From Dictyostelium discoideum (Eukaryota), in the NCBI GenBank assembly GCA_000004695.1, contig CM000153.2, forward strand, positions 64,001 to 128,000: a DNA stretch of 64,000 nt, given 5' to 3'. Positions within the stretch are counted from its first letter, which is position 1, and every line of letters starts with the position of its first letter. A program made the translations under genes and the position numbers. Positions 12,975-54,730 of this stretch are shown here, piece after piece. The notes under the pieces were generated by a model. That model saw nothing but the letters and a program-made list of their open reading frames with translations, had not been told where the DNA came from and made no database searches.

Positions 12975-14266
12975 AGTATGGAATCAAATTATTAAATAAA
13001 TATTAATAAAAATAATAATAACTTAAATAATAATAAATAATAATAATATTTATAATATAATAATAATAATCAATTATTCAACTATCAAATAAACTTTTTT
13101 TTGCAATAATTATAATAGCATTATTAATTACCCTCCATTTTTTACAATATATTTTAAATTTATATACCACAATTTATTTCACAATTAACACGACAGCAAA
13201 TTAATACAGTCATTGGAACACCAAATGAAATACTAACTACTGCTACTTATAAAGCAACAAATAAACCATAGTAACAACAGATTTTAATACAAATTCAACT
13301 AATACACCATAATCAACAATTACAATTCACCATCACTGGTATTTATCATATTGTACCAACCAATCTAAATGCTGCTGGTACTAGAACTTCGTCACCAAAG
13401 GTACAACAATATGTAAATCCACCACCACCATCACCACAACCATCAAATGCACAACAATGTGTAAATCCACCGCTACGACAACAATAAGAACAACAAATTA
13501 ATCATAGGAATACCAACAACTACACCAACAACCATGATTTAAAAGGATGATACTTGTATTAATGGTTTTGGTGATAAAATTCCAGCTTTAAATAAAAAAT
13601 TATTGCAGCTCTAATTTTTAAACGATAGTCCCAAATAAAAAATAATTAAAAAAAAGACAAGCTGACGGGAGGTTTTCTGCAAGATTTGCTGTAACTTAAA
13701 TGTTTTACACATTTAAAAAAAGAATTAAAAAATTTTTGTGGGATAGTATCTAACCAAATTAAAAAAAAAAAAAAAACTCTTTTTTATTTTCTTATTAAAT
13801 TATCAAAAAAATAATTAAGAATTTTTTTTTTTTTTTTTTTAAACAAAAAGCCTTTTTTTTCCATCAGTAATTAATTTGCATTTATTAAATCAAAAAATCA
13901 GATGTTGGACTGGAAATATTCTCTCCACGATATTATCTTTTCCCCTCAAAAAAAAAAAAAATAAAATAATAAACAATGTTATATGATCAAACTAATTAAT
14001 TATTTTGATCAAATTTTTCAATACTATTATGTTAATTATTATTTTCCTTTTTTTTTTTTTTTCCACACTAAATAACATTTTTAAAAATAACCATTTTCAA
14101 AAATAAAAAAAAATAAAAAAATTAAAATTTTATAAAAAATATCTTTTTTTTCGTGTCGCGTTGGCCAAAAATAAAAAAAAATAAATGCATTTTGATTTTT
14201 GTTTTGTTTTGTTTTTTTTTTTTATTTTTTTTTTTTTTTATTATTATATTTTATAACCACACAAAT

Positions 14267-38022: not shown

Positions 38023-40770
<2,748 letters not shown>

Positions 40771-41229
40771 TTTGATACTTGTGGTAAAATTTTATCTTTT
40801 GGTCAAAAATAAAAAAAATAAAAAAAATAAAAAAAATAAAAAAATAAAAAAAATTAAAAAAAATAAAAAAAAATTAAAAAAATAAAAAAATAAAAAAAAC
40901 TCTTGGTATTAATTATAAAAATAAAAAGATATAGAATCTACAACTATCATATTAATATATGTCTACTTATTTATAAATAATTTTAAAAAGAATATTTAAA
41001 AATTAAAAAAAAAAAAAAAAAGACAAATTCGCTCAATATTCCGAAATTACAAAATTCACCATATAAGGGGACCGACAAAGTGTTTTAATTTTTACAAATA
41101 TTTATATTGCGAAACATTTTAAAAGAATATATTTTTTTTTTTTTGCATAAAAATTTCTTTATTATTTATTTTTTTTTTTTTAATTTTAATTTTTTTTCAA
41201 AAATGTATACCATAAAAATAGTAGCATAA

Positions 41230-41350
41230 CTAAATTATAACTAAAGTTTGCTGTGGAGATGGAACATTTAATTTGTTCTTGCCAGATCACAACACCTATA
41301 AGTTAATAGATTATCTGATTACGGTGGGAAAAAATGATTTGGCGTTGATA
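41230..41350 (-). ncRNA. Candidate small ncRNA locus (class unknown), inferred only from the DUSE-like motif and local composition.
   Basis: An island of about 120 bp of mixed composition (..ctgtggagatggaacatttaatttgttcttgccagatcacaacacctataagttaatagattatctgattacggtggg..) between AT-only stretches. A minus-strand TATA-like cattTATAAtc lies between the motif and the island. It has a partial match to the class I RNA 11-nt motif (minus strand CTCCACAGCAA vs CCUUACAGCAA). Weak. Confidence 0.2.
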
Positions 41351-41409
41351 TAGTAAAGATTATAAATGAAAAATATTTTTTTTTCAAGGTTAATAGTATA
41401 TTCACACAT

Positions 41410-41417
41410 TTATGGGT
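41410..41417 (-). promoter_or_regulatory. DUSE-like motif (Dictyostelium upstream sequence element, [A/T]CCCA[C/T]AA), reading ACCCATAA on the minus strand.
   Basis: Plus strand ttatgggt at 41410..41417. The DUSE is described as sitting about 60 nt upstream of Pol II/III ncRNA genes in Dictyostelium. The adjacent minus-strand downstream region 41230..41350 is unusually GC-rich for intergenic DNA. Confidence 0.35.
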
Positions 41418-41575
41418 CTTTTTTTTTTTTTTTATTTTATTCTTTTTTTCATTTTTTCAATTTTTTTTTTTAGAAAAATTTGAATTATTCCAAAAAAAAA
41501 AAAAAAAAAAAACAAAGCGGGAAGGCAACACTTTTTTTTAAAAATTATTTCAAATAACAGCTAAAATTGTAAAAA

Positions 41576-42310
41576 ATGGGAAAAAGAGATAAAAAAATAA
41601 TAATAGAAGAACCAGAAGAACTAGAGGAAGCAGAAGATGTTTTTGAAGTTGAAAAAATTTTAGATAAAAGAGTTCAGCATGGAAGGATTCAATATAATGT
41701 AAGATGGATAGGATTTTCATCAGATTATGATACATGGGAAGATGAAGATAATGTTGCAGGTTGTCCAGAACTAGTTAAAGAATTTGAAAGTTCAAGACAA
41801 CAAGAAAAAAAAAAAAGTAAAAAAAGAAAACATACTATAATTAACGACGATCCAACTGCAGTAGAAATATCATCATCATCATCACCACCAACCACCAAAC
41901 CTTCATCATCAACAACAGCAGCAGCACCAGCATCATCATCAGCATCAGTAACAACAAAAACAGCAACAGCAACAGTAACAACAGATACATATTTTTCTAA
42001 TAATACTACATCAACACACCAAAAAACAAATCATTCAGTTGAGGTTGAAGAAAATATAAAAAATGAATATATAAAATTTGGTGTACCTTATATTGAAGGT
42101 GTTGGTTTTGAAAATGGTCATTGTGTTGAGGAGGTTATAGGTTGTAAACCCTTTGGTCAAGATAATACACTATTTTTCTTTGTTAAATGGAGAGACCAAG
42201 AAAAATTATCTTGGGTACCAAATGAAATCCTTAAACATAAAGAACCATTACAATTAATTGAGTTTTATGAAAGTAGACTTAAATTTGGTTATAGTGGTCA
42301 GCCAAGTTAA
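41576..42310 (+). CDS. Heterochromatin protein 1 homolog, with a chromo domain and a chromoshadow domain (hcpA/B/C family).
   Basis: Chromo domain: ..VFEVEKILDKRVQHGRIQYNVRWIGFSSDYDTWEDEDNV... Ser/Thr/Ala-rich hinge. Chromoshadow domain: ..EEVIGCKPFGQDNTLFFFVKWRDQEKLSWVPNEILKHKEPLQLIEFYESRLKF.. Confidence 0.8.
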   Translation: MGKRDKKIIIEEPEELEEAEDVFEVEKILDKRVQHGRIQYNVRWIGFSSDYDTWEDEDNVAGCPELVKEFESSRQQEKKKSKKRKHTIINDDPTAVEISSSSSPPTTKPSSSTTAAAPASSSASVTTKTATATVTTDTYFSNNTTSTHQKTNHSVEVEENIKNEYIKFGVPYIEGVGFENGHCVEEVIGCKPFGQDNTLFFFVKWRDQEKLSWVPNEILKHKEPLQLIEFYESRLKFGYSGQPS

Positions 42311-43110
42311 AAAATAAAAAAAAAAAAAAAATAAAAAACGAAGGATAAAAAAAAAAAAATAAAAAAATAAAAAAAAAGAAAACATCTGTACTTTATTAAT
42401 CTTAAATCTTCAAACAATTTCTTTTTTTTTTTTTTTTTTTTTTTAAATCTTTCAATAAAATATATTTCCTCATTTTTCTTCAAAACAAAAAGATAATTAC
42501 AAAAAATGAATGACAAATAATTAAATTCTAAAAATAAAAAAACATTCATTTTATGTATTTTATATTTTGTGTATTTTATGGGTATTCTATTTTTTTATAC
42601 AAAATCGATATTAAAATAAAAAAATTAATTGATTATTTTTTTAAAAAAAAAAATAAAAATAAAAAATAAAAATAATTTAAAAATAAATCAGATTCTCATT
42701 GTTTGGATGGGGTAATTTTTTTGATTATTTATTTTTTTTAATCAAATTTTAAAACGAATAATAAAAACAAATAAATTAATCCAATAAAAAAAATATAAAA
42801 TATAAAATAAAATTAATTATAATATCAAACCTTCTATTTTTTTATTTTTTTTTTTTTTTCTTTTTAAAAGAAAAAATTTAATAAAAACATTTATATTTTT
42901 TTTTTTATTAACAAAAAGAAATCCTCAAAAATATGAAAAAAAAAAAAAATAAAATAAAATTTAAAAAATATCTTGAACATCAAAGAAACTAAAATGTCAA
43001 AATGTTCGTTAATTTCCCAATGGACCATATTTTTTTTGTATTGGGGTGGTTTTTTTTTTTTTTAAAAATAGAATTTTTTTATAAAAAAAATAAAAAAAAT
43101 AAAAAAAAAA

Positions 43111-53530: not shown

Positions 53531-54730
53531 ATTAAAAAAAAAAATTAAAAATAAAAATAGAAAATAAAAAAATAAAAAAAATAAAAAAAATAAAAATAAA
53601 AAAATTTTATGGAGTGTGGCTACTAACTAGCACATCTCGATAATTAATTCTATTAAAATAATTTTTATCCCCATAGTTTTTTTTTTATTTTTTTTTTTTT
53701 TATTTTTTTATTGTATATCTAGATATTATTACCATTTTTTTTTATATTTTATTTTTTTATTTTTTTTTTATTTTTTTATAACCCTAATTATTTTACAGAC
53801 TTAAGTGTCTTTACTTTTTTAACTATTTAATAAATATAATAAATATTTTTCACTATTTTTCAAATAGTTTTTTATTTATTTTTTTTATTTTTTTTTTTTG
53901 TCATCATAGATTTCTTTTTAAGGTTATGATGTAAATATGAATATATTTGAATAAAAAAAAAAAAAAAAAAAATTAAAATTAAAATTTCTTAATATTACAA
54001 AGTAACCTTTTTCAAATAAATATTTTAGGTTATTGATTATTTTATTTTTTATTTTTTAAAATTATTATCATTTGACTTTAATTTTTATTACCTTTTTAAT
54101 TTCCCAAATTTGTTTTCAAAAATTAAAAATTAAATATTTTATTTGGAGTTTTTAACAATTTTCTTTGATTCAGATCCATTATGGGTTGGTTTATAATATC
54201 CTATAATCATAAAAAAAATCAAAACATAATTATAATAAAATAAAACTATTTTTATTTTAATTGTCTTAAAATTATTTTATTTATTTATTATTTAAATAAT
54301 TAATATTAATTTAAATTACAAATAATAATTTCTTATCTATCTAAAGAAAAAAATAAATAAATAAATAAATAGTTGTATTTCAGTAAAAATGTGAAAAAAA
54401 AGAAACAAATCATATTTTTACAGAAATACAACTATTTCTAGGAAATTTTAAAAATCGTGGGAAAATTTTTTTTTATTTTTTATTTTTTTTTTTTTTTTCA
54501 TTTTTTTTTTTTTTTTAATATTTTTTTATTTTTTTAATTTTTTAATTTTTAATATATATAATTGTGTAACATTGTATACTTACAAAAATAATAATAGAAT
54601 AACTTAATTGTTTTTTTTAATATATATTTAAATTAAGTCACATACAAAAATAAAATAAAAAAAAAAAAAAAAAAAAAAAAAAATATTAAAAAATAATAAA
54701 CAAATCTATAAATATATAAATAAATAAAGA

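Follow-up and report, generated by a model that had tools for sequence, protein, structure and literature searches.

Guide RNAs for one pseudouridine of the small-subunit rRNA have been described in several eukaryotes. Position SSU1315 of Entamoeba histolytica is the equivalent of yeast 18S U1290, which is guided by snR83, and of human 18S U1347, which is guided by ACA4, and a Plasmodium guide is also listed for it (PMC3542256, Table 3). The Entamoeba guide, ACA-Eh-SSU1315, was detected by RT-PCR and northern blot, and its sequence reads UGCAAGU-CUCCAC-AGAUUGACAU..AUGUCUUAUCU-ACUAAGA-CUUUGCA-AGAUUA (PMC3542256).

In Dictyostelium discoideum the box C/D snoRNAs and the ribose-methylation map have been catalogued, with 17 original box C/D RNAs and 30 new ones (PMC8817022), and a 2024 tally of 47 snoRNAs agrees with the sum of these two sets. 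A single H/ACA snoRNA, DdR-18 (sno18), was reported for this organism in 2019 and 2022 (PMC6912284, PMC8817022), and DdR18 is also named among the snoRNAs identified with Rfam models in a D. giganteum preprint. The literature that we searched yielded no pseudouridine map for Dictyostelium rRNA.

Many Dictyostelium ncRNA genes have the promoter motif DUSE, [AT]CCCA[AT]AA, about 63 bp upstream (PMC3188802), and the motif serves genes of two polymerases, Pol II and Pol III (PMC7919456). In the papers that we read it is described for the spliceosomal RNAs and the class I and class II RNAs, not for H/ACA snoRNAs (PMC3188802, PMC7919456). Class I genes additionally have a TGTG box (PMC7919456). Their RNAs measure 42-65 nt; in them CCTTACAGC directly follows a 5' stem (GTTGA in D. 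discoideum), to which a 3' stem is complementary (PMC3188802; PMC7919456).

Here we describe an island upstream of an HP1 gene of D. discoideum that, as far as its sequence tells, is probably a DUSE-preceded box H/ACA snoRNA gene, the 3' hairpin of which would guide pseudouridylation of 17S U1285.

The island and its promoter motif

The window, that is the whole 64-kb stretch of DNA that was analysed, contains an HP1 (chromo/chromoshadow) gene at 41576-42310. The 244-aa protein is 100 % identical to a D. discoideum AX4 protein, and exactly the same protein is also encoded on the chromosome record GCA_054883475.1 CM142510.1, where positions 5,445,972-5,446,207 correspond to 41430-41195 of the window and the candidate gene lies on the plus strand of the record. 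Upstream of this gene the GC content is 0.29-0.36 across 41200-41349 and 0.09-0.15 in the flanks on both sides. A GC-richer island surrounded by A/T had been noticed here in an earlier reading made without database searches (the sequence-only reading), and the GC profile agrees with it, except that the island is longer and reaches about 41201, slightly past the earlier left limit of 41225. It was also right that no protein ORF fits the island; the longest overlapping frames are 32-40 aa in one count and at most 34 aa in another.

For comparison we used two genomes of the D. discoideum complex in which the gene order is kept, ACTFIR (L002) and ACTFIY (L003). The elements of the candidate gene are, in the order in which they would be read on the minus strand:

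41410..41417, minus strand: DUSE promoter motif ACCCAUAA, read from the sequence; invariant in ACTFIR and ACTFIY
41405..41411, minus strand: AAAUGUG, the consensus of the class I TGTG box, overlapping the 3' end of the DUSE; invariant in ACTFIR and ACTFIY
41201..41354, minus strand: predicted box H/ACA snoRNA of about 154 nt, from its folding architecture, with predicted ends
41354-41344, minus strand: leader, 11 nt
41281..41343, minus strand: 5' hairpin, which in isolation adopts this shape (MFE -11.6 kcal/mol)
Within the 5' hairpin, minus strand: lower stem GCCAAAUCA/UGAUCUGGC, with one A.C mismatch
41334-41327 and 41292-41290, minus strand: asymmetric internal loop of the 5' hairpin, UUUUUUCC and UUG
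Within the 5' hairpin, minus strand: upper stem CACC/GGUG and the apical part
41280, minus strand: spacer, a single A
41274..41279, minus strand: H box AGAACA (ANANNA) in the hinge, the same in the window and ACTFIY; AGAACG in ACTFIR
41273-41263, minus strand: hinge, 11 nt
41210..41262, minus strand: 3' hairpin; the isolated MFE is exactly this structure, SNORA4 aligns with it, and it is 100 % identical in ACTFIR and ACTFIY
Within the 3' hairpin, minus strand: strands in the order CCAU, CUCCAC, AGCAAACU, 13-nt loop, AGUUAUGCU, ACUAUUUUU, AUGG
Within the 3' hairpin, minus strand: lower stem CCAU/AUGG and upper stem AGCAAACU/AGUU(A)UGCU
41253..41258, minus strand: 5' strand of the 3' pocket, CUCCAC, predicted to pair with 17S GUGGAG (nt 1287-1292)
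41214..41222, minus strand: 3' strand of the 3' pocket, ACUAUUUUU, the ACUA of which is predicted to pair with 17S UAGU (nt 1281-1284)
41209-41207, minus strand: spacer UAU
41204..41206, minus strand: ACA box, 3 nt after the 3' hairpin
41203-41201, minus strand: tail UUU, followed by UUGAAAAAA

The DUSE-like 8-mer that the sequence-only reading had placed at 41410..41417 is indeed present, reading ACCCATAA on the minus strand from 41417 to 41410. How often such a motif occurs by chance was a question that this reading had itself raised. In the whole 64-kb window there are 11 matches, against 9.8 ± 3.4 in dinucleotide shuffles, so that no enrichment is seen. In the AT-rich 40 % of the window the matches number five, where a mononucleotide model predicts 0.4, and Markov models of order 1 and order 2 predict 1.8 and 2.7 (P(≥5) = 0.03 and 0.13 for the two Markov models). 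By frequency alone the motif is near chance, and the enrichment in the AT-rich part is only modest at best. Its weight comes from the context, namely a spacing of 63 nt to a sensible predicted start of the RNA and an unchanged sequence in both of the diverged genomes compared.

Counted from the first DUSE base, 63 nt lead to 41354, the predicted start, from which the 11-nt leader extends to the 5' hairpin. Transcription of the candidate would thus begin near 41354 and proceed divergently from the HP1 gene, the DUSE (41417-41410) recruiting the snRNA-type transcription machinery shared with other small RNA genes of Dictyostelium. The TATA-like element noted earlier does exist, as TATAAT at 41364-41359 on the minus strand; it occupies positions -10 to -5 relative to the predicted start and is therefore probably not a -30 TATA box. 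The candidate RNA has internal U6 and U5 runs, and internal U runs of this length would terminate Pol III, so RNA polymerase II seems the more likely of the two enzymes for this gene.

The predicted RNA and its predicted target in 17S rRNA

The predicted RNA has the hairpin-hinge-hairpin-tail arrangement of a box H/ACA RNA, and each hairpin, when folded in isolation, adopts its pocket structure; for the 3' hairpin alone the pocket-containing fold is the MFE structure at -4.4 kcal/mol. The H box follows ANANNA and lies in a single-stranded hinge, the AGAACG of ACTFIR deviating at the last position. The ACA is followed by 3 nt, UUU, at the predicted 3' end, and conservation stops about 12 nt later. 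The distance from the base of the upper stem to the ACA is 16 nt in the 3' hairpin (canonical 14-16), whereas in the 5' hairpin the distance to AGAACA is 13 nt, or 14 nt if the closing C-G pair opens, which is borderline with respect to the usual 14-16 nt. At 4 bp, the lower stem of the 3' hairpin is short.

When the whole RNA was constrained to the full canonical structure, its energy was -16.0 kcal/mol, compared with -23.8 kcal/mol for the unconstrained MFE. The stability of the whole-RNA fold is not unusual (z = -1.2), which is unsurprising for an AU-rich sequence. A relaxed, wobble-tolerant H/ACA descriptor was also tried; it returned 95 low-complexity matches, missed the candidate with its bulged upper stem, and was discarded. 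In the cell the RNA would be expected to assemble with dyskerin, Nop10, Nhp2 and Gar1.

No match was obtained with Rfam at gathering thresholds in the whole window. At E ≤ 10 across 40950-41550, an Rfam scan of the kind that the sequence-only reading had suggested as a check found one family touching the island, SNORA4 (RF00394), on the minus strand at 41309..41202. The score of 21.5 bits is below the gathering score of 56 and is not significant alone (E = 0.99 in a 601-nt search), and only the 3' hairpin aligns; the candidate is therefore not filed as a member of the family. Within this alignment, the consensus pocket columns CUCCAC and ACUAUUU and the closing AG..CU of SNORA4 are exactly reproduced in the candidate. 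The rli60 and cow-rumen-4 matches in the same interval and at the same threshold were regarded as noise.

The internal loop of the 3' hairpin predicts a target of the form 5'-..UAGU-UN-GUGGAG-3', with bipartite pairing around an unpaired U-N. To locate it in rRNA, we joined two overlapping D. discoideum 17S contexts, around Um1255 and Um1264 (PMC8817022 supplement), into a 31-mer. This retrieved three metagenome contigs, one of which (L009) is a complete eukaryotic SSU-5.8S-LSU unit; this dictyostelid rDNA contig reads GUUCUUAGUUGGUGGAG immediately 3' of the 31-mer. The two further SSU contigs, 93-98 % identical, have the same target sequence, and all three read ...GGUGCAUGGUCGUUCUUAGUUGGUGGAGCGAUUUG....

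The 3' pocket pairs with dictyostelid 17S UUAGU[UG]GUGGAG through 4+6 Watson-Crick base pairs and no wobble. The pairings ACUA:UAGU and CUCCAC:GUGGAG flank U1285-G1286, which remain unpaired where the upper stem begins (the uridine was numbered by counting from U1264), so that the 3' pocket shows the bipartite complementarity around an unpaired U-N that is characteristic of a guide. We then scanned the 1634 uridines of the SSU, 5.8S and LSU rRNAs of L009, asking for a minimum of 3 bp on either side and of 9 bp altogether, and a single site was found, namely the predicted U1285. Among shuffled pockets, 7.8 % find some 10-bp site in rRNA, and for this reason the evidential weight lies in which site is matched, not in the pairing alone. 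17S U1285 is the counterpart of yeast 18S U1290 and human 18S U1347, and it would be converted to pseudouridine by the RNP that the candidate guides.

For the 5' pocket no convincing target was found in the rRNAs, its best sites being no better than those of shuffled pockets. This applies to SSU U543/U544 in AACACAAUUGGAGGG and to SSU U1197 in GACUCAACUCGGGAAAAC, both of which were rejected. The 5' hairpin may be structural, or it may be a guide for another site.

The same stretch of sequence also bears on whether the locus could encode another kind of DUSE-driven small RNA, that is a class I, class II or novel ncRNA that is not a modification guide. The DUSE and the AAAUGUG motif are in favour of such an RNA, and the partial likeness to the class I 11-mer noted at the outset is real: CUCCACAGCAA, at 41258..41248 on the minus strand, matches CCUUACAGCAA at 9 of 11 positions. 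The class I layout of a GTTGA stem followed by CCTTACAGC(C)AA is nevertheless absent, ACAGCAA alone being shared. There is no GTTGA 5' stem, no full motif, no 3' stem and no length of 42-65 nt, and the pocket's 5' strand, together with the first part of the upper stem, accounts for the motif-like stretch. The length of the conserved unit is moreover about 150 nt. The sequence-only reading had likewise seen no fit to a class I RNA of about 60 nt, and we regard a small RNA of this other kind as extremely improbable.

Conservation and the neighbouring HP1 gene

The HP1 protein of the window is 86 % identical to that of ACTFIR and 79 % identical to that of ACTFIY. Identities of the window to the two genomes along the locus, in the order ACTFIR / ACTFIY, are:

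41201-41345, minus strand, RNA body: 96.6 % / 98.6 %, without gaps
DUSE to start, minus strand: 96 % / 91 %
HP1 coding DNA: 92 % / 91 % (90-92 % overall)
Spacer towards HP1: 75 % / 68 %
Spacer downstream of the ACA: 57 % / 51 %, effectively unalignable

The block from the DUSE to the ACA is thus 91-99 % identical in both genomes, and conservation extends from GACCCATAAATGTGT to about 12 nt past the ACA. Of the five variable columns, two fall in the apical part of the 5' hairpin and three fall within or next to the H box and hinge. No position of the 3' hairpin or of either pocket varies among the window, ACTFIR and ACTFIY. No compensatory change occurs among these three similar genomes, and covariation neither supports nor contradicts the stems.

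It seems very improbable that the island is a GC-richer patch accompanied by a DUSE-like 8-mer, both having arisen by chance and without function. The chance frequency of the 8-mer in the whole window, the unremarkable z-score of -1.2 and the Rfam E-value of 0.99 would all be in keeping with this, but the sharp-edged conservation of 97-99 %, the exact identity of the pocket with two independent guide families and the unique match to a known, conserved pseudouridine site are jointly very unlikely to be coincidental.

Conservation could also be due to the neighbouring gene. The island precedes the ATG of HP1 by 230-375 bp and is conserved in both genomes that keep the gene arrangement, as would be expected of a conserved cis-regulatory element of HP1 (a promoter, an enhancer or part of a plus-strand 5'UTR) in which the H/ACA features were coincidental. 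However, the HP1 orthologue of ACTFIZ, with the same downstream synteny, has a 340-bp upstream spacer without any trace of the island, and in the HP1 paralogue of AX4 the sequence shared with the window begins only at 41543, which is 33 nt before the ATG. In addition, the island exceeds the HP1 coding sequence in conservation, and a hairpin-H-hairpin-ACA geometry with the pocket of a known guide is unexpected in a regulatory element. That the island might turn out to be the HP1 promoter or 5'UTR was, together with a chance frequency of the motif, an outcome by which the sequence-only reading would have fallen; the ACTFIZ orthologue and the AX4 paralogue speak against it, and we consider an HP1 element most unlikely.

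We also looked for copies elsewhere by blastn with word size 7, to which a strict pocket pattern was added on L001-L008 and L012-L014. The loci covered were the HP1 loci, syntenic or paralogous, of D. citrinum, D. dimigraforme and D. firmibasis (L005-L007), the HP1 locus of ACTFIZ with its 10-kb flanks (L008), the cathepsin-anchored syntenic loci (L012-L014) and the locus of the AX4 HP1 paralogue (L015); none of them yielded a copy. A search for distant orthologues at the protein level, for which an exon of the adjacent 413-aa gene was used, gave nothing useful. The gene content of the interval differs among ACTFIZ, D. citrinum, D. dimigraforme and D. firmibasis. The candidate gene appears to have moved recently, as it is located in an unstable interval beside a lineage-specific HP1 duplicate and is missing from this interval in the sister genomes. 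As yeast, human, Plasmodium and Entamoeba all have a guide for the target pseudouridine, ACTFIZ and the three named Dictyostelium species, at whose syntenic loci no copy was found, probably carry the guide elsewhere.

A recent arrival, as suggested by the absence of the gene from other Dictyostelium syntenic loci, might be a silent or decaying extra copy of an H/ACA gene, with the functional copy elsewhere in the genome. The H-box change in ACTFIR and the 5' pocket without a clear target would fit such a pseudogene. Against this, the boxes are intact, the DUSE is kept at the canonical spacing to the predicted start, and the 3' hairpin is 100 % identical in three lineages although the adjacent spacer is unalignable, which argues for ongoing purifying selection. 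A pseudogene is therefore unlikely.

The H/ACA architecture, the pocket of known guides, the unique target and the coincidence of the conservation edges with the interval from DUSE to ACA together support a small RNA gene at this locus. The sequence-only reading had proposed an unannotated, DUSE-linked small RNA gene on the minus strand, divergent from HP1; these sequence features support the proposal and give it a sharper form, that of a guide for 17S U1285.

Comparison with known guide RNAs

DdR-18 is of the same organism and the same RNA class as the candidate. In the D. giganteum preprint DdR18 was identified with Rfam models, and on the island no Rfam family other than SNORA4 matched even at E ≤ 10, so that the candidate is a different gene. 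The published chromosome 4 cluster of the C/D genes CD18, CD26 and CD28 is not in the window. By the literature searched, the candidate is most likely the second H/ACA gene of D. discoideum, and an unnamed earlier prediction of it is possible. The chances are about even that it is also the first recognised DUSE-promoted, independently transcribed H/ACA guide RNA in the Dictyostelia.

If this is true, the snRNA-type promoter also serves rRNA-modification guides in Dictyostelia, and a grammar consisting of a DUSE at -63 and an H/ACA fold with an rRNA-complementary pocket could reveal the H/ACA repertoire and the pseudouridine map. For the remaining guides the candidate would provide a template, namely an AT-poor island, an upstream DUSE and an H/ACA fold. 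D. discoideum is a major model organism, for which the candidate offers a concrete testable site, 17S U1285, and it could serve as a positive control for pseudouridine mapping in Amoebozoa. Our understanding of how H/ACA RNPs function is unchanged by it.

Among DUSE-dependent genes, those of the snRNAs and the class I and class II RNAs have the motif about 63 nt from the start, as the candidate has it from its predicted start; the product of the candidate would differ from theirs in being a modification guide. Yeast snR83 resembles the candidate in its target, the equivalent pseudouridine being 18S U1290. snR83 also guides U1415, and no pocket for this second site was found in the candidate in the scan of the L009 rRNA; nor was there an Rfam match to snR83 in 40950-41550 at E ≤ 10.

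SNORA4 is also a two-hairpin H/ACA RNA, in which identical pocket strands are found in the same (3') hairpin as in the candidate, with a pocket-to-ACA distance of 15 nt compared with 16 nt, and its target, human 18S U1347, is the equivalent of the candidate's U1285. In sequence, neither its 5' hairpin nor any of its stems is related to those of the candidate, and human SNORA4 is intron-encoded, whereas the candidate has a promoter motif of its own. The likeness may reflect either orthology or convergence forced by the common target.

ACA-Eh-SSU1315, an amoebozoan RNA of intergenic origin, has the antisense core CUCCAC|AG..CU|ACUA in common with the candidate and no overall sequence similarity to it. 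Its pocket is located in the 5' hairpin, upstream of the H box AGAUUA, while that of the candidate is in the 3' hairpin, and it pairs 6+7 nt (ACUAAGA) where the candidate pairs 6+4. The Entamoeba RNA measures 121 nt, and its northern blot was taken to suggest a form with a single hairpin (PMC3542256). Since both SNORA4 and ACA-Eh-SSU1315 carry the pocket of the candidate, two independent guide families for one pseudouridine share it, and by its predicted pairing the candidate is most likely the functional counterpart of snR83, ACA4/SNORA4 and ACA-Eh-SSU1315.

The HP1 gene and its upstream block

The HP1 gene of the window and the 225-aa HP1 paralogue at the AX4 locus L015 lie on the same chromosome, about 55-75 kb apart, and have 88-91 % identical DNA over window 41543-42379 and L015 9967-10743. 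This likeness is confined to the stretch from 33 nt 5' of the ATG through about 70 nt beyond the stop codon, and both HP1 copies are followed by a Sod_Cu-domain gene. Among Dictyostelium genomes, the content of the interval bounded by the 386-388-aa and 413-436-aa genes varies. Close to the start codon of the window copy there is a short block:

41513-41531, plus strand: CAAAGCGGGAAGGCAACAC, 45 nt 5' of the HP1 ATG

This block is GC-rich, surrounded by variable A/T runs and nearly invariant in L002 and L003, the two D. discoideum-complex genomes that keep the window gene order. Probably it represents either the core promoter of HP1 or the beginning of the HP1 5'UTR. Upstream of the HP1 orthologue of strain ACTFIZ the block was absent.

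The 915-aa gene and its surroundings

40035-40226: long serine-codon repeat within the 915-aa minus-strand ORF
41020-41085: small GC-richer islet containing TTCGCTCAATATTCCGAAATTAC and GGGGACCGACAAAGTG

The repeat encodes more than 50 serines, its GC skew reaches +1.0, and it is ordinary Dictyostelium low-complexity coding sequence. The islet was observed 250-300 bp 5' of the 915-aa gene; it is partly kept in L003, and TTTA repeats are found in its place in L002.

The rDNA reference contig

The metagenome contig Ga0307414_10002705 (L009, 1-9332), our rRNA reference for the snoRNA target search, carries a complete dictyostelid-like rDNA unit:

6558-4680, minus strand: SSU
4383-4226, minus strand: 5.8S
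3801-53, minus strand: LSU

Judged by sequence, its source is a close relative and not AX4 itself, because the 26S-G711 context does not match the published D. discoideum one, despite the agreement of several other rRNA contexts.

DUSE sites and the TGTG box

13655-13743, minus strand: second DUSE site, with DUSE TCCCACAA
16564-16571, plus strand: DUSE-consensus 8-mer in AT-rich intergenic DNA
42576-42583, minus strand: the same
54179-54186, minus strand: the same
41405-41411, minus strand: AAAUGUG, identical to the TGTG-box consensus of class I genes

Together with the DUSEs at 13655-13743 and 41410-41417, the three intergenic 8-mers bring the count for the window's AT-rich part to five; the expected number is 0.4-2.7, varying with the background model. 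No obvious GC-richer RNA body was seen downstream of these three.

At 13655-13743, AAATGTG was observed 29 nt after the DUSE, followed by GUUACAGCAAAUCUUGCAGAAAACCUCCCGUCAGCUUGUC and a T8 run. The element agrees with the class I motif at 9 of 11 positions, but the GTTGA 5' stem of class I RNAs is missing, the DUSE-to-G spacing is only 48 nt and Rfam gave no match. This site may represent a class I-like gene that has degenerated.

The AAAUGUG at the predicted snoRNA gene is unchanged in L002 and L003. Whereas the TGTG box of class I genes lies about 60 nt 3' of the DUSE, here it directly overlaps the DUSE.
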